From contig JAYVPW010000150.1 in assembly GCA_043777315.1 (NCBI GenBank), forward strand, positions 1 to 64,000: a DNA stretch of 64,000 nucleotides, written 5' to 3'. Source of the DNA: Spartobacteria bacterium (GTDB lineage Bacteria; Verrucomicrobiota; Verrucomicrobiia; Chthoniobacterales; Chthoniobacteraceae). Positions within the stretch are counted from its first letter, which is position 1. Each line of letters starts with the position of its first letter. This document shows positions 5,240-33,320 of this stretch, in pieces. A program made the position numbers and the translations under genes. Under the pieces are notes generated by a model. That model saw nothing but the letters and a program-made list of their open reading frames with translations, made no database searches and was not told the origin of the DNA.

Positions 5240-5408
5240 TGCTCTCGGGGACATCGCGGGACGCTGGGGGAGGTGCCGTGGGGCGGAGGGATGAGCGGGG
5301 CGTCGGGGCGGTGCGTGGGATTTGTTCCGGAGTCCTTCGGAGCGCAGCGCGTACGAAGTCGAAGAAAGTCTCTCGATTTCCCCCGCCGGACGCGCGGGTG
5401 GGGGAAAA

Positions 5409-17723: not shown

Positions 17724-18791
17724 ATGCCCACCCAAACCACCGCTGAATCGCCCACCGCCGTTCCTGTCCCCGACTCCGCTGCGCCGGTCGACGACAAAGC
17801 TGCCGCCGCCATGCTCGTCGATGCGTTCAACCGCATCTCCGCTGAGATGGGCAAATTCATCGTCGGCCAAAGCGAAGTCATCGAGCAGCTCGTCATCGCG
17901 GTGCTCGCCGGCGGGCATTGCCTGCTCGAAGGCGTCCCCGGCCTCGCGAAAACCGCGATGATTCGCTCGCTCTCGCGCTGCATGGATTTGTCGTTCCGGC
18001 GCATCCAATTCACCCCCGACCTGATGCCGTCCGACATCACCGGCACCGACATCATTCAGGAAGATCCCGCGACCGGTCACCGCAAGTTCGTGTTCCAAAA
18101 AGGCCCGATCTTCGCGCAAATGATCCTCGCGGACGAAATCAACCGCACCCCGCCGAAAACGCAGGCCGCACTGCTCGAAGCGATGCAGGAACACTCCGTC
18201 ACGATCGGCGGCAATACGCTGAAACTCGAAGAGCCGTTCTTCGTCCTCGCGACGCAAAATCCGATCGAGCAGGAGGGAACGTACCCGCTCCCCGAGGCTC
18301 AGCGCGACCGCTTCATTTTCCTCGTGAAAGTCGAGTATCCGAGCCGCGAGGAAGAGCGCCAGATCATCGCCCGCACCACCGGCACCTTCGGCGCAGAACT
18401 CCAGCCCGTGATCCACGGCGACCAGATCATCGCCCTCCAGCAGGTCGTCCGGAAAGTCCCCGTGCCCGAGCACGTGATGGATTTCGTCCTCGACCTCGTC
18501 CGTTTCACCCGCCCGAAAAGCACCGACGCTCCCGCCTTCGTCAAAGAGCTGATCGAGTGGGGCGCCGGCCCGCGCGCCTGCCAAAATCTCGTCCTCGCCG
18601 GCAAAGTCCGCGCCGTCCTCCGCGGCCGTTTCCACGTCACCATCGACGACATCGAAGCGCTCGCTCCGCCGATCCTCCGGCACCGCATCGTCGCCACTTT
18701 CAACGCCGAGGCCGAAGGGATCAACGTGGACGACATCGTTGCGCGGATTTTGAAGATCGTGCCGCGAGGCGAGGCGAAGCGGACCCTTTGA
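17724..18791 (+). CDS. MoxR-family AAA+ ATPase
   Basis: Walker A GVPGLAKT, Walker B ILADEINR, typical 355-aa MoxR layout. Confidence 0.9.
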
Positions 18792-19214
18792 AAATTTTGA
18801 ATTTTGAATTCTTAATTTTGAATTGAGCGCGCTCCGTGAAGGACAACGTCATCCGGGAGAAGGCTTATTCTTTTGCGCTCGCGATCATCGGATTTTGCCG
18901 CGAATTGCGGCAGATTCGTGAGTTCGAGTTGAGCCACCAGCTTTTCAAGAGCGGCACCAGCATTGGAGCCAATGTAGAGGAGTCGCAAGCCGCCCAAAGC
19001 CGCGCCGACTTTCTCTCGAAAATGTGCATCGCCTCCAAAGAAGCGCGCGAAACTTTGTATTGGTTAAGCCTCATCCGGGACGACCCGTATTTCGTGCAAC
19101 TCCCCTCCGCACCTCTGCTCTCCGACTGCTCCGAAATCGTCCGCATCCTCACCTCAATCGTGAAAAGCACCGGCGACTCCTGAATTCAAAATCAAGAATT
19201 CAAAATTCAAAATT
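18791..19214. repeat. low-GC cassette bounded by inverted AT-rich heptamer arrays (AATTTTG)n: left arm 18791-18824, right arm 19183-19214 (one mismatch); carries a four-helix-bundle gene
   Basis: arms are reverse complements; interior ~52% GC against ~65% in the flanks. Confidence 0.8.
18836..19183 (+). CDS. four-helix-bundle protein (23S rRNA intervening-sequence protein family, TIGR02436/PF05635)
   Basis: family motifs QLFKSGTSIGANVEE, ADFLSKMCIASKEARETLYWLSLI; 115 aa. Confidence 0.8.
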   Translation: MKDNVIREKAYSFALAIIGFCRELRQIREFELSHQLFKSGTSIGANVEESQAAQSRADFLSKMCIASKEARETLYWLSLIRDDPYFVQLPSAPLLSDCSEIVRILTSIVKSTGDS

Positions 19215-19222
19215 GTCTCCCC

Positions 19223-20128
19223 GTGGCCCACGTCTCCGACTTCCTCACCCCCGCCGATCTCCAAAAGATCAGCAACCTCCAAGTCCTCGCGCGCCAGGTT
19301 GTCGAGGGCTTCTGCTCCGGCCTGCATCGCTCGCCGCACAAAGGTTTCAGCGTCGAGTTCAAGCAGCACCGCCAGTACGTCCCCGGCGACGAAATCCGCC
19401 ACATCGACTGGCGCGTCTTCGGCCGCAGCGACCGCTTCTACATCCGCGAGTACGAAGAGGAGACGAACCTCCGCGCCTCGCTGCTGCTCGATCTCAGCGG
19501 CTCTATGAATTACGGCGGCGCCAAAAACGGCGGCCCGAGCAAATACCAATACGCCACGCGACTCGCCGCCTGCCTCGCGTATCTCATGCTCCAGCAGCAG
19601 GACACCGTCGGCCTCGCCACCTTCGACACGAAGATCCGCAAATACATCCCGCCGCGCTCCCGCGTGAGTCATTTGAAAGTGATCATCGACGAGCTCCAGC
19701 GCGCCACTCCCGGCGGCGAAACCGAGCTAGGCGACGTCTTCCACGACCTCGTCCCGAAGCTCCACCGCCGCGGCCTGCTCATCGTGATCTCCGACTGCTT
19801 CGGCGACGTCGCCGCGCTCATGAAAGCGCTCGCGCACTTCCGCCACGCCAAGCACGAGATCCTCATTTTCCAAATCTGGGACCGCGACGAACTCGAGTTC
19901 CCCTTCAAAAACTGGACGCAATTCGACTGTCTCGAACGCGACGGCGTGAAGCACCTGCTCGACCCCGTGCAACTCCGCCAGGCCTACCTCGCGAACCTCG
20001 AGAAATTCCGCGAAGACCTCACCCGCGGCTGCCGCCGGCACAAGATCGACCTCGTCCCCTTCACGACCGACCAGCCGTACGCCGATGCGCTCGCCGCGTA
20101 TCTGAGCCGGAGGATGGCGCGCGGATGA
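19223..20128 (+). CDS. DUF58 (vWA-like) protein, MoxR partner
   Basis: [26 protein letters not shown] and LLLDLSGSM motifs. Confidence 0.85.
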
Positions 20129-20691
20129 AAGGGGACGGGGAAAGCGGAGAACGTCGAACGTCGAACGTCGAACGTCGAACGTCGAACGAGGAGGAAGCGG
20201 CGAATGGAACGCTGCAAGGCGCTTCGAGGGTTTGGGACTTGGAGGAACGATTGCTCGATTACTCCGTTCGGATCATTCGCCTCGCCGATGCGCTTTTTCC
20301 GTCGCGCGCTGGGAACCATGTCGCGGGTCAATTGCTTCGCTCCGGCACTTCTCCCCTGCCAAATCACGGCGAAGCGGAGTCAGCCGAATCGCCTGCCGAT
20401 TTCCTCCACAAACTCCGCATTTGCCTGAAAGAACTTCGCGAATCAAAGCGCTGGCTGCGTCTCATTCATCGCGCTCCCCTGATCGACAGACCGGAAAAAG
20501 TCGAGCCGCTCCTCGCTGAAACCGAAGAGCTCATTCGCATTTTCGTCGCCAGCATCCGCACCGTCGAGAGCCGCCAGTTCAGTCCCCGCGTCCGTGAGGA
20601 CGCCTCCGATTCCGATACTTCGACGTTCGACGTTCGACGTTCGACGTTCGACGTTCTCCCCTCCCAGCCCCCACCCGAGGAAACCCCATGA
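20125..20691 (+). CDS. four-helix-bundle protein (23S rRNA IVS protein family), second copy; start uncertain (ATG 20125 overlaps the DUF58 stop; the conserved core begins ~20230); stop overlaps the next ATG (ATGA)
   Basis: family motifs [41 protein letters not shown]; both termini are translated from the heptamer arrays ([12 protein letters not shown] / [12 protein letters not shown]). Confidence 0.6.
20131..20667. repeat. heptamer-armed hairpin element E1: left arm GGGG..GGAGAACGTC(GAACGTC)4 at 20131-20187, right arm (GACGTTC)5TCCCCTCCC at 20618-20667; the loop carries a four-helix-bundle gene
   Basis: arms are reverse complements with a G-rich/C-rich clamp; same family as E2-E4. Confidence 0.8.
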
Positions 20692-22841
20692 ATTTCCTCA
20701 ACGCCGCCCTCCTCGCCGGCACCCTCGCCCTCGCGATCCCGATCATCATTCACCTCTTCCACAAGAGCCGTTTCGAGGTGGTGAAATGGGGCGCGATGCA
20801 CCTGCTCGAGTCGGTCATCCGCACCAATCAAAAGCGCGTCCGCATCGAGCAGCTCATCCTCATGGCGATCCGCGCCGCGATCCCGCTGCTGCTCGCACTC
20901 GCCATGGCGCGGCCCATCTGGCAGGGCGCGCAGAAGCTCCTCGGCGAGGCGAAAACCTCCACGATCCTGCTGCTCGACAACAGCTACTCGATGGAAGCCG
21001 GTCGCACCGGCACCTCGAATTTTTCCCTCGCCCGCGACGAAGCCACGCGCGTCGTCAACGACCTGAAACGCGGCTCCGACGTGCAGGTCGTTTTGATGGG
21101 AGAAGGGGGCTCCTCCCTGCTCGACCAGCCGACCTACGACACCGGACGCATCACGCAGGGGCTCACGAAATTGAGCGCGGGTTACGGCACCGCAACCGTC
21201 CCGGCGTCGCTCGATTTTGCGGCCGGCATCTTCGAGAAAATGCACGAGTCGGCGCGGAATCTCGTCGTCCTCACTGACTTCCAGCGCGTCAGTTTCGAGG
21301 CCACGGAAGACGCCGCGCTCGGGCAGGCGCTCGACCGGCTGAAAAAGCAGACGATCGCGCCGCACGTCACATTTTTCGATGTCGGGCAGGAGGTGAAAGA
21401 CAACGTCGCGCTCGAGTCGCTCGACTTCTCGCGCCTCATGGTCGGCGTCGGACAGAAGATCCAAATCCGCGCGAACCTCCGCAATTTCGGCGACGCCAAT
21501 TACCCCGACCTGCGCGTCTATTTCAAAGCCGACGGGAAGGAAAAATCGGTTTCCCAGATCGCACTTTCGCCGCACGAAAAGCGGCAGGTTCTTTTCACGC
21601 ACGCGTTCGATACGCCCGGCTCGCACGTCGTCGAAGTCTTCGCCGACGCGGACGCGCTCAAGGCCGACAACAGCTACCTCGCGAGCATTCCCGTGCGCGA
21701 CAAAGTCCCGGTGTTGCTGATCAACGGCGACCCGAGCGGCGAGCCGATGAAAGGCGAAACCGACTTCGCCGAAATCGCGCTGGCTCCGAACAGCGCGGCC
21801 CGCGTCGAACTCGCCGACCTGCTCGCGACGAAGGTCGTGCGGGCCGAAGAACTGGACCCGAAACGCCTCTCCGAGTCGGCAGTCGTGATCTTGGCCAATG
21901 TCCGCAAACTCAATGACGATCAGCTTCGCGGGCTCGAGGAGTTCGTGAAAAACGGCGGCGGCCTCCTCGTTTTCAGCGGCAACCGCGTCGATCCGGCGTG
22001 GTACAATTCCGCCTTTTTCAAAGACGCGAAGGGCCTGCTCCCGCTGATCCTCGGCCCGCTCGCCGGCGACCTGAAAGAGAGTTCGCCGTCCGTCTCCGTC
22101 GTCTCGCAGCGTTTCGACAATCCCGCGCTCGAACTCTTCAACGATTCACGCAACGGCAACCTCTCCGACTCCGCGATCAAGCTCTGGTTCAAGCTCAAGG
22201 AGCCCGGTGCCTCCGCCGTGACGACGCTCGCCCGACTCGAAAACGGCGACCCATTTCTCGTCGAAAAACCGTTCGGCGAAGGCCGCGTGATCCAGTGCTC
22301 GACGGCACTCGACGCCGACTGGAGCAACCTGCCGATGCGCCCGACCTATTTGCCGCTCCTCCAGCGCCTCTCGGTCTATCTCGCCTCCACGATTTATCCG
22401 TCGCGAAATCTCGACGTCGGCAAGCCGCTCATCGCGCTCCTGCCCGCCGCGGATGCGGGAAAAAAAGCGACGATCACGAACCCCGACGGCGCGGCGGTCG
22501 AGGTGCTGATCGTGAAGAAAGGCGAGCGCGGCGTGGTCGAGTTTGGCAAGACCCAGCGGCCCGGACTTTACACCCTCACGGCGGCCGGCGGGCAGCCGGT
22601 GCATTACGTCGTCAACGCGTCGCGCCGCGAGTCCGACCTCCAGCGATTGAGCGATGCGGAGATCGCCGATTTCGCGAAACAGCATGGCGTCGCGGTCGTC
22701 CACAACGGCGCGGAATACAAGGCGCTGGATCAGTCGCGGCGGTTCGGGACAGAGCTGTGGAAACCAATCCTGTGGGCGCTGCTCGGAATGGTTTTTGTGG
22801 AGGTGGTGGTGGAGCAGAAATTTGCGGGGAGGCGGAAATGA
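20688..22841 (+). CDS. BatA-like membrane protein (N-terminal double-TM domain + vWA-like region + C-terminal TM), 717 aa
   Basis: N-terminus [24 protein letters not shown]...LILMAIRAAIPLLLALAM matches the BatA N-terminal double-transmembrane domain; LLLDNSYSM vWA MIDAS-like. Confidence 0.7.
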   Translation: MNFLNAALLAGTLALAIPIIIHLFHKSRFEVVKWGAMHLLESVIRTNQKRVRIEQLILMAIRAAIPLLLALAMARPIWQGAQKLLGEAKTSTILLLDNSYSMEAGRTGTSNFSLARDEATRVVNDLKRGSDVQVVLMGEGGSSLLDQPTYDTGRITQGLTKLSAGYGTATVPASLDFAAGIFEKMHESARNLVVLTDFQRVSFEATEDAALGQALDRLKKQTIAPHVTFFDVGQEVKDNVALESLDFSRLMVGVGQKIQIRANLRNFGDANYPDLRVYFKADGKEKSVSQIALSPHEKRQVLFTHAFDTPGSHVVEVFADADALKADNSYLASIPVRDKVPVLLINGDPSGEPMKGETDFAEIALAPNSAARVELADLLATKVVRAEELDPKRLSESAVVILANVRKLNDDQLRGLEEFVKNGGGLLVFSGNRVDPAWYNSAFFKDAKGLLPLILGPLAGDLKESSPSVSVVSQRFDNPALELFNDSRNGNLSDSAIKLWFKLKEPGASAVTTLARLENGDPFLVEKPFGEGRVIQCSTALDADWSNLPMRPTYLPLLQRLSVYLASTIYPSRNLDVGKPLIALLPAADAGKKATITNPDGAAVEVLIVKKGERGVVEFGKTQRPGLYTLTAAGGQPVHYVVNASRRESDLQRLSDAEIADFAKQHGVAVVHNGAEYKALDQSRRFGTELWKPILWALLGMVFVEVVVEQKFAGRRK

Positions 22842-23015
22842 GGGGGGAGGCGGAGAACGTCGAACGTCGAACGTCGAACGTCGAACGTCGAAGTAGGAGC
22901 GCGCGGCGTGGCGTTTCCGTGCATCGCGCGGCGCAGTTGAACTCACGACATTTTCGGAATTCGCCACGCCGGAATCCGCCACTTCGACGTTCGACGTTCG
23001 ACGTTCGACGTTCGA
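22842..23015. repeat. heptamer-armed hairpin element E2 (arms (GAACGTC)4/(GACGTTC)4, ~88-bp loop)
   Basis: GAGGGGGGAGGCGGAGAACGTC(GAACGTC)3GAAG ... CTTC(GACGTTC)3GACGTTTTCCCCTCCCC. Confidence 0.85.
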
Positions 23016-23049
23016 CGTTTTCCCCTCCCCGCCACCCGGTTTTGTCCCG

Positions 23050-25812
23050 ATGAACGAACGCGTCGAAACCACCCTCCGCTTCGTCGGCGACTGGCCCGCC
23101 TGGCTCGGCCTCACCGCGGCCCTCATCCTCGCCGGAGCCGCATGGCTGCTGTATCGCCGCGATGTGCGTCTGGTGCGCCCGGCCTTGCGCTGGCTGCTCC
23201 CGACCCTCCGCGCGCTGGCGATCGCGATGATCGTTTTGATGCTGAGCGGACCAGTGCTGCATCATCGCAAAACGATCGGTCAGCTCTCGAAATTGCTGCT
23301 GTTCGTGGACAGTTCTCGGAGCATGGATTTGACCGATTCGTCGATGAGCATCGGGCGCAAAATCCTGATCCTTCAGCGCATGGGGATGCTCTCGCCGGAT
23401 GCGTTGAAAATGGATTTGCCGAAAGCCGGCGAAGCGCTCGCCGAGGCGCAGATGCTCGCGGAAAAGACGAAGCTTTCCACGAACGCGGACGATGCGGCGT
23501 TCAAAAAGATCACGACCGATTTCGCAGGGAAAATCACGGTGGCGCGGGAGCTGATCGCGAGCGCGGGAAGCGCGGGCGATCAACTCGCACGTTTCGGAAA
23601 AGAGCTCGGCGAACCGGCGCGGGAGATCGCCGGACGGGAGTTCAAAAAAATCGATGACCGCGCGCGTGCGACGCAGGATCTCACGCGCCTCGGCGAGAGC
23701 GCGCGGCGCTGGCAGGACGAGCTCGAGGAGGCATTTCAGAAGACCGCGAACGAGGCTGCCGCGGGCGACCTTTCGCCGCTGCGCGCGGCGCTGCAGAAGT
23801 TCGACGCGATGCCGCGGACGCAGCGCGTGCAGTCGCTTTTGCTCGAAGGCGGCTCGCCGCCGATGCTCGCGAAAGTCGCCGAGACTTATGACGTGCAACT
23901 CCTTTCGCTCGACAGCGGCGAGGCCAAGAAAATCTGGCAGCCGACCGCCAAAAACTCGTCGCTTCCGACCGCGCTTCCGAAACCCGTCGGCGACGTGACG
24001 AATCTCGCGACGGGTGTGAAAGCCGGCGCTGGCGAGCAGGAAAAAGAGCAGCGCGGCGCGGTCGTCGTGTTCAGCGACGGCCAGCATAATGACGGCGATT
24101 CGCCGGTCGAAATGGCGAAGATGCTCGGCGCGCGCGGGATGCCGATTTTCACCGTCGGCATCGGCAGCCAGACGCGTCCGCGCGATCTCGCGGTCGTGAA
24201 AACGGAGGGGCCGGACGCCGTGTTTTATCAGGATCGCGTGCGCGGGCAGGTCACGCTGAAGGACGACATGCCGGCGGGGATGCCTTTCAAAGTCGCGATC
24301 CAGGACGGCGACAAAATGCTGTGGGAACAGCAGGTGATCAGCGACGGGACGCAGCTCCGAAAAGTGCCGTTCGACTTCGCAGTGAAGGAACTCGTCGAGG
24401 CGAAATTGGCCGCTGGCAAAGGGAGCGGCGTGCAGGTTTCCGGCGTCCCGCTCGATTTGAAAGTGAGCGTCTCGCAGATCGAAGGCGACCGTGAGCCGAG
24501 CAATAATTTCGGCAGCCTCCGCGTGCGCGCGGTGACGCAGAAACGCAAGATTTTGATCATCGACGGACGCCCGCGCTGGGAGTCGCGCTACCTGCGGAAT
24601 CTCTTCGATCGCGATGAGCAGTGGGACGTCACGTCGGTCATCGCCGGCGCGAAAGTCGGCGAGCCAGGATTCGCCCGTGGGACGAAGCCGGACGAATTTC
24701 CGACCGACCCCGCGACGCTCGCCGGATTCGATTTGATCATCCTCGGCGAGACGCCGCGCACGCTCTGGAAAGGCGAGGAATTGCAGTGGATCAGCGACTT
24801 CGTGAACAAGCGCGGCGGGGCGCTGATTCTCGTCGATGGCGCTCGCGGACGATTCAAGGAATACGCCGACTCGCCGCTCGCGCCGCTCTTTCCCGTCGAG
24901 TGGAAAGCGCCCGCGGTGCGCGAGGGAATCACGAAGATTTCGCTCACGGGTCGGAGCGCAAATCTCGCGCCTTTCGCGCTCGCCGCGGACCGCGCGCAGA
25001 ACGCCGAAGTGTGGAGCAAGTTGCTCCCGCCGCACTGGATTTCGGGCGCGAGCGCGCTGCCCGGCGCGGAGCGTTTGCTCGATGCGGAAGTGGGCGGGCA
25101 CGCGGTTGCCGCGGTGGTTTATCGCCCGTTCGGCGCGGGCAAGGTGCTTTATCACGCGTTCGACGAATCGTGGCGCTGGCGCTACGAAATCGGCGACCTG
25201 CATCACGTCCGATACTGGAATCAAATCGCCAACTGGATCGCGGAATTGCCCTTCGCCGTGCGCGACAAATTCATCTCGCTCGACGCGGGCGCGCTGACCT
25301 ATCGGCCCGGCGAATCCGCCGACATCCGCGTGCGTCTGCGCGACGGAGAAGGCAAGCCGGTGAGCAACGCGAGCGTCGATGCCGTACTCTACCGCGACGG
25401 GCAAAAAGTCGCGGGCATCAGGCTCAGCGCCGACGACAATGCGGGCGGACTTTTCCACGGAAAAACCGCGGCGCTGGAGCCGGGAAATTACGAGATCGGG
25501 ATCGAGTCCGCGGCGATCCCGCAAAATGAACTCAAGGCGCGCACGACCTTCAAAGTCGAGCCGCGCGAGACGGGCGAACTCACGCTGCTGAACCTCAACG
25601 AAGACCTGCTCCGGCAGATGTCGGCGGCGAGCGGCGGTCAATATCTGCGCGAGGAAAACGCGGGCAAACTGATCGATCTCCTCGCGCCCTTGAGCCAGGG
25701 CAAGGTGATCGAGAGCGAGACGCCGCTGTGGCAGAGCTACGCGTGGTTTCTGCCGATCGTGGCGCTGCTGACGGCGGAGTGGATCGTGCGGAAACGGGTG
25801 GGGCTTTTGTGA
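23050..25812 (+). CDS. BatA/BatB-like vWA-domain membrane protein, 920 aa
   Basis: N-terminal double-TM, vWA-like block (VVVFSDGQHNDGDSP), C-terminal TM. Confidence 0.65.
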   Translation: MNERVETTLRFVGDWPAWLGLTAALILAGAAWLLYRRDVRLVRPALRWLLPTLRALAIAMIVLMLSGPVLHHRKTIGQLSKLLLFVDSSRSMDLTDSSMSIGRKILILQRMGMLSPDALKMDLPKAGEALAEAQMLAEKTKLSTNADDAAFKKITTDFAGKITVARELIASAGSAGDQLARFGKELGEPAREIAGREFKKIDDRARATQDLTRLGESARRWQDELEEAFQKTANEAAAGDLSPLRAALQKFDAMPRTQRVQSLLLEGGSPPMLAKVAETYDVQLLSLDSGEAKKIWQPTAKNSSLPTALPKPVGDVTNLATGVKAGAGEQEKEQRGAVVVFSDGQHNDGDSPVEMAKMLGARGMPIFTVGIGSQTRPRDLAVVKTEGPDAVFYQDRVRGQVTLKDDMPAGMPFKVAIQDGDKMLWEQQVISDGTQLRKVPFDFAVKELVEAKLAAGKGSGVQVSGVPLDLKVSVSQIEGDREPSNNFGSLRVRAVTQKRKILIIDGRPRWESRYLRNLFDRDEQWDVTSVIAGAKVGEPGFARGTKPDEFPTDPATLAGFDLIILGETPRTLWKGEELQWISDFVNKRGGALILVDGARGRFKEYADSPLAPLFPVEWKAPAVREGITKISLTGRSANLAPFALAADRAQNAEVWSKLLPPHWISGASALPGAERLLDAEVGGHAVAAVVYRPFGAGKVLYHAFDESWRWRYEIGDLHHVRYWNQIANWIAELPFAVRDKFISLDAGALTYRPGESADIRVRLRDGEGKPVSNASVDAVLYRDGQKVAGIRLSADDNAGGLFHGKTAALEPGNYEIGIESAAIPQNELKARTTFKVEPRETGELTLLNLNEDLLRQMSAASGGQYLREENAGKLIDLLAPLSQGKVIESETPLWQSYAWFLPIVALLTAEWIVRKRVGLL

Positions 25813-25847
25813 TGATGAATGCGCTGCTGATTTTCGCGGGGTTCGCG

Positions 25848-25963
25848 GAGGGGGCAAACGTCGAACGTCGAACGTCGAACGTCGAACGTCGAAGTGGGGA
25901 AACTGAAGAGACGCTGCGCGTCGGACTCTGCGTTCGACGTTCGACGTTCGACGTTCAGCGTTC
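25848..25963. repeat. heptamer-armed hairpin element E3 (~35-bp loop)
   Basis: GAGGGGGCAAACGTC(GAACGTC)3GAAG ... (GACGTTC)-type arm ...TTTGCCCCTC. Confidence 0.85.
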
Positions 25964-26002
25964 GACGTTTGCCCCTCTTCCGTCCGCAACCCGACTCCCG
26001 CC

Positions 26003-29000
26003 ATGAGCTACAAACTCGACCCCAAAATCCTCTCCAAACTCCGCGCCTTCGCCGCCCGACGGCGCAAGCTGATCATCATCCGCGGCATCTGCACCGCGAT
26101 CGCGATGCTGCTCGCGACGATGATGACCGTGGCGTTCGTCGATCTCGTTTTCGTGCTCCCCGACGGCGTGCGCTGGGGGCTCAGTGCCGTCGCTTATCTT
26201 GCCGTGATCATCGCGGAATGGCGCACGTGTCTGACGCTGCTCGCTCATGCGCCCGGTCCGCGGCGGCTGGCGCGTTTGCTCGAACATGCGGAGCCGAAGC
26301 TGCGCGAGGATTTACTTTCCGCGGTCGAGCTGGGGACGAGCAAGGATGGGGAGGTCGTCGATTCGGAGCAGTTCCGCGCGCTGGTGCAGAGCGATGTCGC
26401 GGCGCGGATGGAAAACGTCGATGTCGATCGGTTGCTGCCGGTCGGTTTGGTGCGGCGGTATCTCGGGATCGCGGCGGCGATTTTCGTGGCGATGATCGTG
26501 GCGTTCGTGATGACGGGGACGCAGTTCGGCACGCTGATGATGCGGGCGCTGCTGCCGATGGCGAACTTCGCGCGCGTCTCGAAATTCAAGGTCGCGATCG
26601 TCGAGCCGAAGCCGGCGGAAATGCCGGTGGCGTTCGGCGATGCGGTGCCGCTGCTGATCGAAGTTTCCGGCGGACGGACGAGCAAAGCGGTGCTCGAGAT
26701 ATTCACGAAAACCGGGGGGCGCGAAGTTGTGCCGATGACTCCGGCGGAGGGCGATCGCTTCTCGTCCACGATCCAAGTGGCGCGCGAGAACGTCGAATAT
26801 CGGGTGCGGGCGGGCGACGCGATCACGCGCAAATACCGGCTGGCGGCGATGCCTCGTCCGCACATCGCGAAGTTCGAGAAGAGCTACACTTTTCCCGCTT
26901 ACTCACGAGTCGCTCCGAAGGCTGTGACCGAGGAAAATGGTGATCTCGCGGCGCTGGAAGGGAGCGAAGTCGAGCTGCGGCTCGAGCCGAATCAGAAGAT
27001 CAAGAGCGGCGAACTCGTGATCGAACAGGGGCGCGTGACCTCGACCGTGCCGCTCGTCGAGGGCACCGGAAATCGGCTCACCGCAAAGATTTCACTGAAA
27101 ACTTCGGGGACGTATCGGGTGCATCTCGTCGCGGCGGAGAGCGGATTCGAGAACAAGTTCAGCCCGGAATACGAGATCCGCGCGGTGCCGGACCTTGTCC
27201 CGCAGGTCGATCTGGAATTGCCGAAAGACGACCTCATTTTGCCGGCAAACGAGATCGTCGATCTGGAAGGAACGGCGACCGATGACCAGTCGCTCGCGAA
27301 GGTCTCGCAGCTCGTCCGCGTGAACGAGGGTCCGTGGCGCGAAGTGCCGCTGGCAAAGGATCCGGGGGCGAAGACGAAAGTGGAGCGGCGCTGGGATTTG
27401 TTCGAGCAGGGCGTGAAGCCGGGCGATTTGCTGACGACGAAATTGCTCGCGGTGGATTTGAAGGGGAACAAGTCGGAGTCGAGGTCGCTGCAGATCACGA
27501 TCACGGCGTCGGGCTTCGAGACGAAGCGGGTGACCGGGCTGGATGCGCAGCGCGAATTGCTGCGGGTGATCGGCGAGGCGCGGGCGGCGGCGGACGCGCT
27601 GGAGAAGCAGGGGAACGAGGCGCGCGATGCGTTCGCCCGGCTGCCCGAAAACGATTCGCAGCGGAAGCAGACGGCGGTGACGGCGGCGGCGGCAATGGCG
27701 ACTTTCGATGCGAAAGCGGCGGCGATTTGGGGGCAGTTGACCGCGACGTTGCGCGCCTCTTCGCCGGGACATCAGAGCGCCGATCTCGCGCTACTCGCCC
27801 GACTGCTTTCACGCATGGATACAGGATCCGCGGACAATGCGCGCGATGCGCTCGGGCTCGTTATGCCCGATGCGGGTTCGCCGTTTGCGCGCGATCAAAT
27901 GCGTGAATTTGCCGACGGAACCTCGCGCACCGGACAGCGCGCGCGGTCGGCGCACGACGGTTATAAATCGCTCGTCGGAGCCGAGGAGCTCGATGTGCTC
28001 GCGGAGAATATGTCGGTCGTCGCGAAAGAGCAGGAACGGCTCGCGGCGCTCGCGCAAAAGAGCGGCACGGATGCGGCGAAATGGGCGCAGATCGCGAACC
28101 GGATCCGGGTGATCGTTGCGGAGACGCGGAGCCTGGAGCAGTTGATGACCTCGACGGGCGAGCATCTCGGCGGCGCGTTTCCGGACCGGATCAAACGGCT
28201 GGCAAAGGAGATCGAGAAACAGCGGACGGTGATCGACGCGGCGATCACCGCAGGCACGCCGGATCAGAAGTTGAACGAGCCGACGAAACTGCTCGCGCAG
28301 GCGTGCGCGAATGCGGCGAGGAGCCTTTTGGATTTCGAACGCGAGACGGCCTACACGCCGGTGAAGAAGGTCACGGAAATGACGAAAGAGACGGGGCCGA
28401 CGTACGCGAATTTCGAGCGGTTGCGGGCTGATTTTCAGCAGGTGAAGGCGATGGACAAGTTGCCGGCGGATGCTGTGGCAGGCTTGATCTCGCGGCGATG
28501 GGACGAACGGATCGAGGCGTTCAAAGCGCACGGCGATGCGGAGGAGGCGCGGCCGGATTCGGACGCGTATTTTGTGAATGATGTGCGGTCAGTTTCGCTC
28601 GCGCTGAAGGCGACGCACGAGGCGGCGACGGACGACGCGGCGCTGTTGAAAGAGAAGCTGGCGGCGCTGGAGAAAAATTTCCGGCTGCTCGAGAGCGGGC
28701 ACAATTTGTTCGAGGTGGCGGATGGTTTGAAGCAGCTCGCGGGGGCGGAGAAGTGGGAGATTTACAGCGCCCGCGCGCGCACGTCGGCGCCGCGGGATTG
28801 GAGCTGGCTGGAGGCGCGGCTGCGGGCGCTGCCGGAGGAGCTGGGCAAGGCGGCGCTCGATGAGGAGACGAAGAAACTGACGGGCGAGGCGCAGAAGATT
28901 TTGTGGCAGGTGCTGCAGCAGCCGTTCGCGCAGCAGGTAGCGCAGGAGATGCCGCAGCGGTTCAATCCGCAGCGGGAGCCAGTGGCGAAGCGGGCGGAAA

Positions 29001-31447
29001 TCGAGAAGACGGCGGCGATGGTGAATCAGGCGCTGGCGATTTTCCGCAAGCCGATGCAGGAGGCGCGCGAGCAGCTCGCGCAGATGGTGCCGAAGCTGTC
29101 GGAGATCGCGGCGCAGCTCGCGAAAGAGACGGAGGAATTGAAAAAAGAGACGCAGGAGGAGGCGCAGAAAACGGCGGAGAAATCGCCGGCGGAAGCGCAG
29201 GCGGAGACGCAAAAAACTTTGGCGAAACAGGAGAAGCTGAACTCGGAGGTCGGCGCGTTGAAGGATGCGCTGCGGGCGGATGCGAACCAGCAGGACGTGG
29301 CGAAAAAGGAAGGGCGCGAGCGGGCGCGCGATGCGGACGATGCGCTGGCGATGTTGAAGGAGCCGCCCGTCCGGGCTGAACAGGCTTTGCTGGAAGCGGC
29401 GCAGGCGCCCAAAGCCGATCTGCGGAAAGAGGCGCTGAACGGCGCGACGGAGCATCAGCAGAAACTCGCGGATGCGCTGAATCAGCTCGCGGAGCACTAC
29501 GCCAAAGTGGAGGAAGGGAAGGCGGACGAGACGCGGATGGCGTTGCGCGAGACGGAGGAAAAGAACGGCGTGAAGGAGCAACTCGACGCGCAATTTGCTA
29601 AGGCCGAGCAGATGGCGGAACTCGCGCAGAAGTCGCCGGAGGAACTGCTGGCACAGCTCGAAAAAGCGCTCGCGAAAAGTCCGGCGATGCAGAAGGAGCT
29701 CAGCGAAATTTCCAAGAACACGCTGGCCGACGCGCAGAAGCAGCTCGATCAGGCAAGCCGGCAGGAGAATCAGGTGGCGCAGGATTTGGCGAAAATGACG
29801 GCGCAGGCGACGGCTCCGAACGCGCCGCAAACGCAGACACCGCAGACCGCGAAGCAAGCTGTGGAGAAGGCTCAGCAGGCGGCGAAGCAATCGCTCGACG
29901 CGGCGAAGAACGCGCAGAAACAGGCGGACGAAGCGGTGCAGGCGGCGAAGGCGGCGAGCAATCAGCCCGCCGTGGAGCAGGCGCGGCAGGCGCGGACGGA
30001 AGCGGCGGCGGCGGCGCAAGCGGCCGAGCAGGCGGCGCAAGCGGCGGAGCAAATGACGAAGCCGAGTGAGGCCGCGAACGCAGCAAAAGCGGTGGTGGAG
30101 AAATCGGCGGAAGCGGCGAAGGATGCGGCGCAGGCGGCGGGTGATGCGGCGAAGGCGCAGGCGACCGCGCAGCAGACGGCGGCGCAGCAAACGGGTGATC
30201 CGCAGGCGAAGAATCAACAGACTTCAAAAGAAGCGGGGGAGGCGACGCAGGCCGCACAACAGGCGGCGCAGGCGGCGAAAAACGCGGAAGCGGCGGCGCA
30301 GCAGGTCGCGGCGATGACGCAGCCGCAGAATGCCGCGACCCCGCAAATGGCGCAAAACGCGACGCCTCCCGCAGCGCCGGCAGCACCTCCCGCGGCGACT
30401 CCGAATTCACCAAATCCAGCGACCCCGGCACCGGCGAAAAATGCGCAGCTCGCGCCGGCGGCGGCGCAGCAGCCGGAGATCGCAAAGGCCGCGAATCAAG
30501 CAGGGGAGCAGGTTGCGCGGGCGGGGCGGCACGAGGAGCGGCTGCAAAACATGGCGGTCGGGGAGAAGCTGCAGCAGCTCGGGAGTGACGTGAAGCAGAC
30601 GGCGGCAGAGCAGGTTCCGAATGCACAGCAGGCACTCGCGAAGGCGGAGAAACCGGCGCAAGCGCAGGCGGCGGTGAACGCGGCGGACTCGCAACTCGCG
30701 GCGCAGGCGGCGCAGTTGCAGGCGGCGGCGAATCCGGCGATGGCGGCTCCTCCGCAGACGGGGCAAGCGACGTCGCAATCGGCCACGCCCGCGGATGCGC
30801 AAGCTCCGGCGACGCCGGACAGCGCGCAGGCGGCGGGGGCTCCGCAGAGTGCGCAGGCGAGCGCCGCGAATTCGCCTCCGCCGAGCGGGAAGCCGCCGGG
30901 CCAGCAAAGCCCGGCGATGCAGGCGCAGAGCGGCTCTCCGGCCGGTGCGCCTCCGCAGGCCGCGCCCGCGCAGCAGGGGATGCTGGCTGATCTCGCGGCG
31001 ACGCCCCCTTCACCGCAGGAACAAGTGTGGATGGCGCGGACGCTCGATGCGCTGGATGCGGCGTTGCATTCGGAGCCGCCGGGCGCGGGCGAGAAAAGCG
31101 ACCCGCAGGCGGGCGCGCAGGCGCAGGCCGCGATGGCGGCGGCCGCGCAGGCTGCGGCTCAGGCGATGCGGGCGGAACGGAGCGAGAGTTCGGAGACGCC
31201 GGCAGGGATCGTCGGGAAGGGCGATTTGCAGGTGAAGTCGAAGGGCGGAGTGAAGGCGGCGGGGACGGCGCAGGCGTACGGGCAGACGGCGGAATTGAAG
31301 GGCGCGATCAAGCCGGGCGAATGGGGAAAATTGCCGAAGCAGGTCGCGGAGGAACTGAGCCAGGGCCAGCGGGAAAAGGTGGCGGGCGAGTATCGCAATC
31401 AGATCGAGACGTACTATCGGGTGATCGCGGAGAAATCGAAAAAGTGA
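26003..31447 (+). CDS. giant (1814 aa) membrane-anchored protein with long coiled-coil and Ala/Gln/Glu/Pro-rich low-complexity tail; Bat-operon associated; function unknown
   Basis: two N-terminal TM segments, >1000 aa of predicted coiled coil, A/Q/P-rich C-terminal third (DNA-level GCGGCGCAGGCGGCG repeats). Confidence 0.6.
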   Translation: MSYKLDPKILSKLRAFAARRRKLIIIRGICTAIAMLLATMMTVAFVDLVFVLPDGVRWGLSAVAYLAVIIAEWRTCLTLLAHAPGPRRLARLLEHAEPKLREDLLSAVELGTSKDGEVVDSEQFRALVQSDVAARMENVDVDRLLPVGLVRRYLGIAAAIFVAMIVAFVMTGTQFGTLMMRALLPMANFARVSKFKVAIVEPKPAEMPVAFGDAVPLLIEVSGGRTSKAVLEIFTKTGGREVVPMTPAEGDRFSSTIQVARENVEYRVRAGDAITRKYRLAAMPRPHIAKFEKSYTFPAYSRVAPKAVTEENGDLAALEGSEVELRLEPNQKIKSGELVIEQGRVTSTVPLVEGTGNRLTAKISLKTSGTYRVHLVAAESGFENKFSPEYEIRAVPDLVPQVDLELPKDDLILPANEIVDLEGTATDDQSLAKVSQLVRVNEGPWREVPLAKDPGAKTKVERRWDLFEQGVKPGDLLTTKLLAVDLKGNKSESRSLQITITASGFETKRVTGLDAQRELLRVIGEARAAADALEKQGNEARDAFARLPENDSQRKQTAVTAAAAMATFDAKAAAIWGQLTATLRASSPGHQSADLALLARLLSRMDTGSADNARDALGLVMPDAGSPFARDQMREFADGTSRTGQRARSAHDGYKSLVGAEELDVLAENMSVVAKEQERLAALAQKSGTDAAKWAQIANRIRVIVAETRSLEQLMTSTGEHLGGAFPDRIKRLAKEIEKQRTVIDAAITAGTPDQKLNEPTKLLAQACANAARSLLDFERETAYTPVKKVTEMTKETGPTYANFERLRADFQQVKAMDKLPADAVAGLISRRWDERIEAFKAHGDAEEARPDSDAYFVNDVRSVSLALKATHEAATDDAALLKEKLAALEKNFRLLESGHNLFEVADGLKQLAGAEKWEIYSARARTSAPRDWSWLEARLRALPEELGKAALDEETKKLTGEAQKILWQVLQQPFAQQVAQEMPQRFNPQREPVAKRAEIEKTAAMVNQALAIFRKPMQEAREQLAQMVPKLSEIAAQLAKETEELKKETQEEAQKTAEKSPAEAQAETQKTLAKQEKLNSEVGALKDALRADANQQDVAKKEGRERARDADDALAMLKEPPVRAEQALLEAAQAPKADLRKEALNGATEHQQKLADALNQLAEHYAKVEEGKADETRMALRETEEKNGVKEQLDAQFAKAEQMAELAQKSPEELLAQLEKALAKSPAMQKELSEISKNTLADAQKQLDQASRQENQVAQDLAKMTAQATAPNAPQTQTPQTAKQAVEKAQQAAKQSLDAAKNAQKQADEAVQAAKAASNQPAVEQARQARTEAAAAAQAAEQAAQAAEQMTKPSEAANAAKAVVEKSAEAAKDAAQAAGDAAKAQATAQQTAAQQTGDPQAKNQQTSKEAGEATQAAQQAAQAAKNAEAAAQQVAAMTQPQNAATPQMAQNATPPAAPAAPPAATPNSPNPATPAPAKNAQLAPAAAQQPEIAKAANQAGEQVARAGRHEERLQNMAVGEKLQQLGSDVKQTAAEQVPNAQQALAKAEKPAQAQAAVNAADSQLAAQAAQLQAAANPAMAAPPQTGQATSQSATPADAQAPATPDSAQAAGAPQSAQASAANSPPPSGKPPGQQSPAMQAQSGSPAGAPPQAAPAQQGMLADLAATPPSPQEQVWMARTLDALDAALHSEPPGAGEKSDPQAGAQAQAAMAAAAQAAAQAMRAERSESSETPAGIVGKGDLQVKSKGGVKAAGTAQAYGQTAELKGAIKPGEWGKLPKQVAEELSQGQREKVAGEYRNQIETYYRVIAEKSKK

Positions 31448-31530
31448 TGAAACTTTCGCAATTTCCAGACGCATCTTCCGTTCGTGGGGAAGTCAGAATT
31501 AGCCACGGACAGCCACGGACAGACACGGAC

Positions 31531-31665
31531 GGGGGAGGGGAGGGGAGAACGTCGAACGTCGAACGTCGAACGTCGAACGTCGAAGTGTCGGATTCCGAAA
31601 GGCGCGATGCTTTTAGCAGCATCTTTTTTGACTTCGACGTTCGACGTTCGACGTTCGGCGTTCGA
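31531..31665. repeat. heptamer-armed hairpin element E4 (~46-bp loop containing its own small hairpin GATGCTTTTAGCAGCATC); preceded by (AGCCACGGAC)x3 at 31501-31530
   Basis: GGGGGAGGGGAGGGGAGAACGTC(GAACGTC)3GAAG ... CTTC(GACGTTC)2GACGTTCGGCGTTCGACGTTTTC. Confidence 0.85.
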
Positions 31666-31710
31666 CGTTTTCTGAAAAATGCTCCGACGTTTGCGGCGGC
31701 GCTGCTGTCG

Positions 31711-33059: not shown

Positions 33060-33320
33060 GTCACCTCCGTTCCCTCTCCCCCAACGCCAAACCGCCAGCC
33101 ATCCGCCACTGTTCTCCATCCCTCAGACCCTAGCCTCCGGCCGTCTCGCTCCGTGCTCCGCTTCCCGACGGAAGACGGCCAGCCGTTGCCCTCCGTTCTT
33201 CGTCTCCCGAGGTCGATCGCCATCCGTGCAGCGCCGTTCTCCACTTCCCGGCGTCGAGCCGCCAGCCATCCGCCTCCGTGCTCCACTTCCCAGCGGCAAA
33301 CCGCCAGCCGTGCGCCTGCC
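33060..33320. repeat. degenerate tandem repeat (~4 units of ~55-65 bp, core CCGCCAGCCATCCGCCnCCGTGCTCCACTTCCC)
   Basis: repeated CCGCCAGCC / GT(G/T)CTCCACTTCCC blocks; region 32730-33690 has no convincing ORF. Confidence 0.5.

Follow-up and report, generated by a model that had tools for sequence, protein, structure and literature searches.

The window analyzed here, the whole 64,000-nt stretch of DNA, carries a forward-strand operon in which moxR (17724–18791; AAA_3 ATPase, Pfam AAA_3 5e-64 and AAA_lid_2) precedes a DUF58/VWA gene (19223–20128; Pfam DUF58 1.4e-47), with an ECF sigma factor gene and an ORF of no assigned family among the neighbors. Between these two host genes lies a four-helix-bundle (4HB) gene, hb1, enclosed by two inverted arms. 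The left arm (18790–18827, + strand) comprises an (AATTTTG)4.6 array at 18793–18824 with 3 bases on either side, and the right arm (19180–19217, + strand), its reverse complement, contains an (AATTCAA)4.6 array at 19183–19214. By an inverted-repeat search, the outer 38-nt arms are 92% complementary, and their 32-nt cores pair at 31 of 32 positions, matching the original prediction of reverse-complementary arms with a single mismatch. Both arms, which had also been described as tandem heptamer arrays, were called as period 7 by Tandem Repeats Finder, with 4.6 copies each of the units AATTTTG and AATTCAA; each arm thereby qualifies as an STRR-type repeat, defined by at least three tandem intergenic 7-nt copies. 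The 18-mer AATTTTGAATTTTGAATT (up to 3 mismatches) occurs at six sites in the window, all within the two arms, compared to 0.02 expected by chance, and the proposed search for other (AATTTTG)n inverted pairs found no second AATTTTG array in the 64 kb. The cassette spans the distance from the moxR stop codon, a TGA (18789–18791) sharing bases with the start of the left arm, to the DUF58 start, a GTG located 5 nt beyond the right arm. The GC content of the segment (18791–19214) is 49.8%, versus 63.5% for moxR, 63.8% for DUF58, and 64.5% for the window, so that the initial estimate of ~52% versus ~65% was about right. Overall, the cassette is ~8–14 points lower in GC than its flanks, with the hb1 ORF at 55.5% and a GC3 of 0.72, compared to 0.82–0.87 in neighboring genes.

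The hb1 gene (18836–19183, + strand) has a GTG start, encodes 115 amino acids, and ends at a TGA that falls inside the right arm. Its product matches PF05635 (23S_rRNA_IVP; 2.5e-21, 76.3 bits with a cut-off of 33.8) and TIGR02436 ("four helix bundle protein"; 1.8e-26, 92.5 bits with a cut-off of 24), is closely related to PDB entry 2RLD (E 4.8e-26), which has five chains, and retains the complete set of family-invariant residues. On the strength of these matches, hb1 is assigned to the PF05635/TIGR02436 family (S23p, 23S_rRNA_IVP, Avd-like), for which at least 5,000 relatives in one search, and at least 7,000 in another, were among the matches listed. Comparison of orthologues, which have pI values of 5.8–7.9 and are not basic, indicates an intact reading frame under purifying selection.

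Further hairpins, all on the + strand, punctuate the same operon. A second cassette (20131–20672), element E1 of the original prediction, has (GAACGTC)5.7 and (TTCGACG)5.4 arms around another 4HB gene, hb2. The cargoes of the two cassettes are indeed members of one family (PF05635/TIGR02436), as had been proposed, although their proteins are just 40% identical. The hb2 ORF lies inside a GC-rich hairpin (20149–20656), begins at ~20230, and, having no stop before the right arm, reaches 20691 and overlaps the batA ATG. Three empty (GAACGTC)5 hairpins follow: one with a 90-nt loop at the junction of the batA-like and 920-aa VWA genes (22855–23019), one separating the 920-aa and 1814-aa genes (25857–25969; 37-nt loop), and one with a 48-nt loop 3′ of the 1814-aa gene (31547–31669). 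In the series moxR, DUF58, batA, 920-aa, 1814-aa, and next gene, hairpins were found at all six consecutive operon junctions and nowhere in the remaining 51 kb, and within the window identical arms surround unrelated loops. Across the loci compared, arrays typically contain 4.4–5.9 units, and hairpin loop lengths are bimodal (18–90 nt or 358–584 nt).

The cassette is co-oriented with the operon and has no recognizable promoter or terminator of its own: a scan, limited for promoters to the sigma-70-type consensus, detected no sigma-70-like promoter or intrinsic terminator in or beside it. The cassette itself was rejected as an intrinsic terminator, given a loop of 352 nt, a right arm without a following T-run, and the negative scan. 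The predicted minimum free energy of the cassette RNA is −147.7 kcal/mol (z = −3.9), with the arms forming the closing helix of the fold and an arm duplex energy of −35.3 kcal/mol. At 120 positions a deviation from the unit consensus had its counterpart in the partner arm, and at 66 it did not. A wobble test found 50 G.U-type versus 68 A.C-type arm mismatches (p = 0.12), with no sense-RNA enrichment; RNA-specific selection on the stem is thus unsupported, and the pairing constraint could act on DNA. Rfam searches identified no rRNA within 17–33 kb and matched no bacterial family, while the empty hairpins yielded only sub-threshold plant and animal miRNA-precursor models, attributable to generic long-hairpin similarity.

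A set of 72 orthologous moxR-DUF58 loci was drawn from one-genome-per-species contigs. The gap between the two genes has a median length of 54.5 nt, is at most 60 nt in 39 of the 72 loci, and exceeds 300 nt in three, confirming both that moxR and DUF58 are normally adjacent and that the insert is absent from most of these gaps. Orthologous cassettes with the same arm unit occupy the same gap in other Chthoniobacteraceae (L014, L082/83, and L084-86), bringing the cassette-bearing lineages, source genome included, to at least four. Synonymous sites in 4HB orthologue pairs are saturated (pS 0.67–0.78; pN 0.17–0.26), and 4HB similarities among orthologues track the host tree. Taken together, the shared gap, the saturation, and the host congruence show that the cassette is not recent but an old resident of this locus in the Chthoniobacter lineage. 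The comparison with related genomes therefore agrees with the original prediction in that most gaps lack the cassette, but the recent insertion it implied is contradicted by same-gap orthologues in three or more further lineages of Chthoniobacteraceae. Monophyly of the cassette bearers was recovered in 0 of 200 bootstraps; a single gain with later losses fits the congruent 4HB similarities better, although the tree is poorly resolved. Further relatives have either an empty hairpin or no insert in this gap, and a sister clade has gaps of 24–30 nt, overlapping genes, and no hairpin. The same junctions in relatives bear hairpins of differing units, position being conserved while sequence has turned over. 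L082 and L083 share 99.3% identity as far as the DUF58 stop codon, beyond which their cassettes differ. L002 and L005 have the same unit in opposite polarity at the same site.

The architecture recurs far beyond this locus. Of 80 4HB loci surveyed in metagenomes, 78 were usable; their inverted-repeat scores had a median of 41, whereas controls averaged 16.6, with a 95th percentile of 22. In all, 70 of 78 loci (90%) scored above that percentile, and period 7 was best in 62 of these 70. Within 900 kb of orthologous loci, every 4HB gene with complete flanks has period-7 inverted arms, and Tandem Repeats Finder called 91 period-7 arrays in 952 kb of loci, versus at most 20 for each other period. 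The same architecture was found in Geotalea uraniireducens, a Nostoc plasmid, a Monoglobus type I R-M operon, and Desulfocapsa, and 4HB genes with inverted heptamer arrays occur in operon spacers of Verrucomicrobiota, Desulfobacterota, Cyanobacteriota, and Bacillota, as well as in 23S rRNA genes. This recurrence across phyla upholds the idea that a heptamer-array arm and 4HB cargo form a unit. Neighboring genes lie on the 4HB strand in 61 of 69 cases upstream and 49 of 56 downstream (about 88%), at median distances of 50 and 44 nt, respectively, and arm polarity is fixed relative to the 4HB gene, with G>C in 58 of 68 5′ arms. Two cassettes reside within 23S genes: an hb1-like heptamer-armed cassette replaces the helix-45 loop (L163), and another, with AATTCTG units, sits just past LSU model position 565 (L135), which maps both at or near classical 23S IVS sites. 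One phage-borne homologue that was inspected has no arms, and one cassette sits in a broken tyrosine-recombinase gene. Two apparent signs of transposition were discarded. On Nostoc flagelliforme plasmids, three identical 4HB copies were found to lie between the same flanking genes and are therefore segmental duplications, and the 24 contigs carrying P0175 all represent the same locus. In freely readable full texts, no paper was found that associates heptamer-array arms with 4HB genes outside rRNA, and this architecture is thus apparently undescribed in the literature searched.

Arms and cargo are a jointly inherited unit: arm unit and protein subfamily are correlated across phyla (Mantel r = 0.57, 0 of 2000 permutations). 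In hosts of 30–65% GC, AATTnnG arms accompany hb1-like genes, and xAACGyC arms accompany hb2-like genes. The freely modular arms that had been envisaged are not in line with this covariation. Since AT-rich arms and low GC typify the subfamily in unrelated hosts, sequence comparison argues that arms and gene arrived jointly from outside the genome. The GC of the 4HB ORF is below that of its locus in 67 of 72 cases (mean difference, 9 points); the reduced GC of hb1 relative to the host is consequently a family trait, and it does not date the arrival of the cassette.

The most probable reading of these results is that the segment represents a hairpin cassette of the IVS type, originally foreign and now resident in a protein-coding operon spacer. 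By analogy to rRNA IVSs, the cassette, a 4HB gene between ~35-bp inverted arms of tandem heptamers, would be transcribed within the moxR-DUF58 mRNA, in which folding predictions pair its arms as a long stem (31/32 bp). RNase III, which experiments have shown to cut rRNA IVSs, would cut this stem, parting the moxR and DUF58 cistrons and freeing the 4HB message. The three cargo-less (GAACGTC)5 hairpins may be non-autonomous relatives of the second cassette. Some descendants kept the moxR-DUF58 cassette, and others lost it or swapped it for different heptamer hairpins. The proposed mobile or horizontally acquired nature of the segment is borne out in part: arms and GC are those of the protein subfamily in unrelated hosts, but no transposase, reverse transcriptase, target-site duplication, or second copy was found (annotated genes at 16.0–32.7 kb; 64-kb window), so that the case for a selfish or mobile element is wholly one of distribution patterns.

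A bolder extension, which we regard as unlikely, is that 4HB-hairpin cassettes are unrecognized, cross-phylum, autonomous mini-elements, in which a pentameric 4HB protein recognizes its own heptamer arrays and empty inverted arrays are non-autonomous derivatives or binding sites. The stoichiometry would then possibly be one 4HB subunit per heptamer repeat, and the copy numbers per array are compatible with a pentamer per five repeats.

Because the hairpins are confined to operon junctions, a host use is possible instead: heptamer hairpins may be retained at cistron junctions for mRNA processing, segment stability, or translational uncoupling, with 4HB genes as loop passengers or RNA-binding regulators. 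The occupation of all six consecutive junctions and of no other site in the 64 kb, the hairpins kept at the same junctions in relatives despite differing units, and the bimodal loop lengths are all consistent with such punctuation. However, hb1-like genes have AT-rich AATTnnG arms in every host, even in the present 64% GC genome with its own GC-rich hairpins, indicating that the arms arrived along with the gene and are not of host origin, and the hairpin-free sister clade, with its short gaps and overlapping genes, implies that the operon can do without them. We consider this explanation doubtful.

Alternatively, the cassette could be mobile at the DNA level, its arms forming cruciform or single-strand hairpins acted upon by a recombinase in trans (cf. 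REP/REPIN-RAYT and IS200/IS605), with heptamers as protein-binding sites and the 4HB pentamer as a DNA-binding accessory. The lack of a wobble bias on the sense strand, the sharp cassette boundaries between 99.3%-identical strains, the cassette inside a broken tyrosine-recombinase gene, the opposite polarity of one unit at one site in L002 and L005, and the identical arms around unrelated loops in the window all point in this direction. Set against them, no transposase or recombinase gene is annotated at 16.0–32.7 kb or beside the cassettes examined, except for that broken gene, and co-orientation with host genes and fixed arm polarity are unexpected for a symmetric DNA palindrome, making this reading quite improbable. 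Shared descent could also yield both co-orientation and fixed polarity. Among known classes of element, a MITE or insertion sequence was rejected, since the arms lack flanking direct repeats and the neighbors annotated (16.0–32.7 kb of the 64 kb covered) are not transposases, as was a REP/REPIN-RAYT system, the enclosed gene encoding a 4HB protein rather than a Y1 transposase, and an integron gene cassette, given two symmetric arms around the ORF and no integrase among the neighbors annotated at 16.0–32.7 kb. Finally, although PF05635 proteins are homologous to Avd, the accessory protein of diversity-generating retroelements (PMC10053308), a remnant or accessory gene of such an element can be dismissed as highly improbable: there is no reverse transcriptase match from ~3 kb upstream to ~13 kb downstream of the cassette, no template/variable repeat pair near hb1, the neighbors are the ECF sigma factor, unassigned ORF, moxR, DUF58, batA, and VWA genes, and the inspected phage-borne homologue is armless.

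To our knowledge, ORF-bearing 23S IVSs, the large 4HB family, and the excess of intergenic heptamers have been known for decades and have never been explained or connected. The survey shows one and the same gene-plus-array unit in operon spacers and in 23S rRNA, with an arm unit specific to each protein subfamily, from which follows the testable hypothesis of cognate protein-repeat recognition and RNase III-type processing of host transcripts. Were the mini-element reading true, it would provide a single account of rRNA IVS ORFs, TIGR02436 function, and the heptamer excess represented by STRR, Xanthomonas GGGAATC, Geobacter, and Chthoniobacter hairpins. A cultured, sequenced isolate of the genus, Chthoniobacter flavus Ellin428 (locus L004), is available. 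Annotation is affected as well, in that gene callers run through GC-rich arrays, lengthening 4HB ORFs to 140–200 aa, and skip some copies, which are missing from annotations.

Among known systems, Avd has a homologous pentameric four-helix-bundle fold (2RLD), but in contrast to Avd, hb1 has no reverse transcriptase or TR/VR nearby and its orthologues are not basic. Neisseria Correia/nemis elements are hairpin MITEs that are transcribed in operons and cut by RNase III; ERIC and REP/REPIN are comparable, and RAYT genes are flanked by their own REP sequences. The cassettes resemble these elements in having short inverted repeats in transcribed spacers, predicted to fold in mRNA, and empty copies with near-identical arms, and 4HB genes are flanked by their own arrays as RAYT genes are by REPs. 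Unlike in MITEs and REP elements, the arms consist of tandem heptamers instead of a unique terminal inverted repeat, and they enclose a gene for a 115-aa helical bundle that is not a transposase and has no known catalytic motif; no target-site duplication is seen. Intergenic heptamers have been described as cyanobacterial STRR, as Xanthomonas GGGAATC (including 70–75 convergent pairs), in Geobacter (4-5x heptanucleotide elements), and as Beggiatoa TAACTGA, in papers that draw no connection to 4HB genes (PMC4692102, PMC2700814, PMC4679880). The arrays described here share with them period 7, ~4–6 copies, and an intergenic location, often in operons and often as inverted pairs; unlike the published repeats, they frame a 4HB gene and covary with it. 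The closest parallel is offered by the ORF-bearing 23S IVSs of Coxiella burnetii, Leptospira, and Xanthomonas, located at helix 25 and helix 45. The Coxiella helix-45 IVS encodes an S23p ORF and carries 2–3 tandem GACAGAT heptamers, and RNase III cleaves its 28-bp terminal stem at the first repeat; a GC content below that of the host and a patchy distribution suggested a horizontal origin (PMC4990558). Likewise, the moxR-DUF58 cassette carries an S23p-family ORF in the orientation of the operon, and its terminal inverted repeats are predicted to close a long stem. It also has tandem heptamers in its arms, GC below the host, and a patchy distribution, and two hb1 relatives lie within 23S genes. 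It differs in occupying an mRNA operon spacer from stop codon to next start rather than an rRNA helix, so that excision would cut a polycistronic mRNA instead of fragmenting rRNA.

Directly 3′ of the moxR stop codon TGA (18789-18791, + strand), the sequence continues as the left arm of the cassette, AAAATTTTGAATTTTGAATTCTTAATTTTGAATTGAG; the four-helix-bundle (4HB) gene (18836-19183, +; hereafter hb1) opens with a GTG start 8 nt past this arm and runs for 115 codons to a TGA within the right arm, AATTCAAAATCAAGAATTCAAAATTCAAAATT, with the GTG start of DUF58 following 5 nt beyond. The arms were scored by a repeat finder as 38 nt with 92% complementarity, their 32-nt cores being complementary at 31 of 32 positions, and Tandem Repeats Finder (TRF) read both cores as period-7 arrays of 4.6 copies in which the sole irregular unit, AATTCTT, has a mirrored counterpart in the opposite arm. 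A motif search returned six matches to the arm motif, compared with 0.02 expected by chance, and the motif is absent elsewhere in the 64-kb window. GC content is 49.8% in the segment and 55.5% in the ORF versus 63.5-63.8% in the neighbors, and GC3 is 0.72 versus 0.82-0.87. The hb1 ORF belongs to families PF05635 (2.5e-21) and TIGR02436 (1.8e-26), and its nearest solved structure is 2RLD (4.8e-26, five chains); the pI of the 4HB protein, 5.8-7.9, is not basic. The arms, the low GC, and the 4HB cargo thus stand as first described. Arrays of AATTTTG present TGA in all three frames within three units, and in several loci (window 18789-18824; comparison loci L014, L084, and L181) the stop of the upstream gene falls within or at the opening unit, so that the cassette supplies it.

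The surrounding genes are all on the + strand, in the order ECF sigma factor, unassigned ORF, moxR, DUF58, BatA/VWA, 920-aa VWA, 1814-aa protein, and prenyltransferase-like protein. Each of six consecutive operon junctions (18790-31669) carries a heptamer-array hairpin. Two of these enclose 4HB genes, namely the AT-rich cassette and, before batA, a (GAACGTC)5 hairpin with a second 4HB gene (hb2; 40% protein identity to hb1); three (GAACGTC)5 hairpins are empty, their loops measuring 90, 37, and 48 nt, and one hairpin lies past the 1814-aa gene. The rest of the window (51 kb) has none. A scan of the cassette found neither a sigma-70-type promoter nor an intrinsic terminator, and no Rfam family matched. 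The hb2 ORF (20230-20691) has no stop before its right arm, reading through (TTCGACG)n to a TGA that overlaps the batA start (ATGA); database gene calls of the hb2 subfamily are overlong (140-200 aa), their RRTSNVE-type repeats being translated arrays. The dense 9/12/21/27-nt tandem repeats within the 1814-aa ORF (29900-31200) and a 42-nt repeat in four copies (33149-33317) are probably coding repeats.

The architecture extends well beyond this operon. Among 80 metagenome loci retrieved with an alignment of proteins resembling hb1 (42-58% identity to it), the 78 4HB genes with complete flanks had a median flanking inverted-repeat score of 41, while 375 control ORFs from the same loci had a mean of 16.6 (95th percentile, 22; 99th, 27.8); 90% of the 4HB genes (70) exceeded the 95th percentile and 77% the 99th. 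The best arm period in those 70 was 7 in 62 and 8 in 6. Arms are AT-rich regardless of host (3-46% GC in hosts of 30-65% GC), and the ORF is lower in GC than the rest of its locus in 67 of 72 cases, by 9 points on average, so that the low GC in the window is a family trait. Neighbors are mostly co-oriented with the 4HB gene (upstream 61/69, downstream 49/56), the median spacing being 50 and 44 nt, respectively, hardly longer than one arm. Arms with a 4HB gene also occur in a polysaccharide operon of Geotalea uraniireducens, in an hsdS/hsdR interval of Monoglobus, and on the Nostoc flagelliforme plasmid pNFSY05 (L170 1384-1878), where the upstream and downstream arrays, (AATTCAA)4.4 and (AATTTTG)4.6, are both perfect and represent the window's unit in reversed polarity relative to the gene. 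Matches were present in 31 plasmid records, 16 of them Nostoc; a phage-borne homolog has no arms. A small gene of the PF13366 (PDDEXK_3) family, which is also linked with rRNA intervening sequences (IVSs), lies a few kb from the Geotalea cassette (L087 16-384). At two loci, tRNA genes (L092 2916-3002 and L168 2928-3002) begin ~70-80 nt downstream of 4HB ORFs stopping near 2848 and 2845, so cassettes also reside within stable-RNA transcription units.

Arm units follow the protein subfamily. Protein distance correlates with rotation-invariant arm-unit distance (Mantel r = 0.57, 0 of 2000 permutations): hb1-like genes have AATTnnG units, and hb2-like genes (68-69% identical to hb2, in ABC-transporter operons of Desulfocapsa and other hosts) have GAACATT, CAACGTT, or GAACGTC units. 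Two cassette lineages, distinct in arm type, are therefore present in the window, whose empty hairpins match the hb2 type. This covariation is at odds with freely combinable arms and cargo and shows arm and gene to be inherited and transferred as a single unit. Relatedness alone can yield such a correlation; binding of the arm by the protein does not follow from it.

A search of one-genome-per-species contigs with a DUF58 probe yielded 80 loci; Chthoniobacter loci are nearest (85-86% identity), which places the window in a verrucomicrobium of the Chthoniobacteraceae. In the 72 loci with both genes, the median moxR-DUF58 gap is 54.5 nt, and among the probe loci only L014 has a 4HB gene in it (AATTYTG arms, protein 61% identical); nearest-protein look-ups added two lineages, L082/83 (70% identical) and L084-86 (63% identical). 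The gap holds empty hairpins in L002-L007 of the same clade and in the more distant L013, L017, and L025, with GGATTTC, CAACGCC, GAACATC, or CAAACKY units (a hexamer in C. flavus Ellin428), and in most sister-clade loci it is 24-30 nt without a hairpin. The L018 gap (1870-2227; MAG labeled Prosthecobacter sp.) is 356 nt, with a different ~100-aa ORF (MYIENKSGTLNG...) and no heptamer arms. Cassette bearers are not recovered as monophyletic in a poorly resolved MoxR+DUF58 tree; 4HB similarity pairs the window with L082 and L014 with L084, the host genes group likewise, and orthologs have pN of 0.17-0.26 versus a saturated pS of 0.67-0.78. The simplest history consistent with these sequences would be one old acquisition, kept under purifying selection and repeatedly lost or replaced. 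Same-gap copies, saturated pS, and concordant grouping contradict a recent insertion. Under the original prediction, an ancient fixed feature was to appear as the same insert, host-like in composition, in all relatives; most relatives lack it and its composition is not host-like, yet the insertion is not recent.

Signs of turnover are present in several loci. The L082 and L083 contigs, which share a sample of origin, have 99.3% identity over the stretch between the sigma factor and the DUF58 stop codon and differ beyond position 5311, where hb2-type cassettes have AACGCTC and AACGTCG arms, respectively. The difference reflects either replacement of the cassette at strain level or a chimeric assembly. 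In L082 (5320-7149), downstream of the hb2-type cassette lie five empty AACGCTC hairpins spaced ~240-266 bp apart, each with a duplicated batA 5′-end fragment, representing either tandem amplification or a metagenome assembly artifact. Empty hairpins with GGATTTC-type units occupy the same gap in L002 (2066-2244), L005 (5894-6011), and L025; polarity is opposite in L002 and L005, and the loops of L002 and L025 are alike. In L180-L187 (e.g., L181 1000-1650), an hb2-like cassette sits inside a broken tyrosine recombinase gene, between an N-terminal part ending ...GKGFKDRVT and a C-terminal catalytic part, SATHLLEAG...LGHADVSTTMIYTHV, with ~90 codons apparently missing. None of the L082/L083 switch, the L002/L005 polarity flip, and the broken recombinase proves transposition. 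The original reading of a mobile or acquired cassette is supported in part: the element is of a foreign type, with arms matched to cargo, but is an ancient resident of this gap and only putatively mobile.

The arms may act at the RNA level. The predicted fold of 18780-19230 is closed by the arm helix (MFE -147.7 kcal/mol, z = -3.9), with a predicted arm duplex of -35.3 kcal/mol. By analogy with IVSs, the cassette would be co-transcribed with the operon and RNase III would cut the arm stem; moxR and DUF58 would thereby end up on separate RNAs, with the 4HB message set free. Deviant arm positions are mirrored in the partner at 120 positions and unmirrored at 66, suggesting a pairing constraint, a count in which local alignment favors mirroring. 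The 5′ arm has G>C in 58 of 68 cassettes, which, together with co-orientation with host genes, suggests strand specificity; both could derive partly from shared descent. G·U mismatches are not in excess over A·C in the arms (50 versus 68), which argues against a constraint on RNA only.

Intergenic heptamer repeats are reported to be over-represented: Xanthomonas has 70-75 convergent pairs (PMC4692102), Geobacter has elements of four and five units (PMC2700814), and TAACTGA arrays occur in Beggiatoa and cyanobacteria (PMC4679880). None of these reports links the repeats to 4HB genes. PF05635 has been recognized as resembling Avd, the accessory protein of diversity-generating retroelements (PMC10053308). 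In the literature searched, for the most part outside subscription journals, no paper describes 4HB genes set between inverted heptamer arrays at sites other than rRNA. With this locus, a general rule comes to light that is apparently undescribed and allows three old puzzles to be tested together. The 80 metagenome loci include two with the cassette inside a 23S rRNA gene, sense strand in both: L163 (2440-2910) in place of the helix-45 loop, with 57-nt heptamer arms, and L135 (1570-2200) just past LSU model position 565, with AATTCTG units. Both are genuine IVSs and belong to the subfamily of the window's 4HB gene. The 428-nt helix-45 IVS of Coxiella has a 28-bp terminal stem, which RNase III cuts at the first of 2-3 tandem GACAGAT heptamers, an ORF for S23p (a 23S_rRNA_IVP-type protein), and GC below that of the genome (PMC4990558). 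The window cassette has all these features in common with it except the rRNA location, RNase III cutting being predicted by analogy. The class that fits it best is that of IVS-type elements, here residing in an operon spacer.
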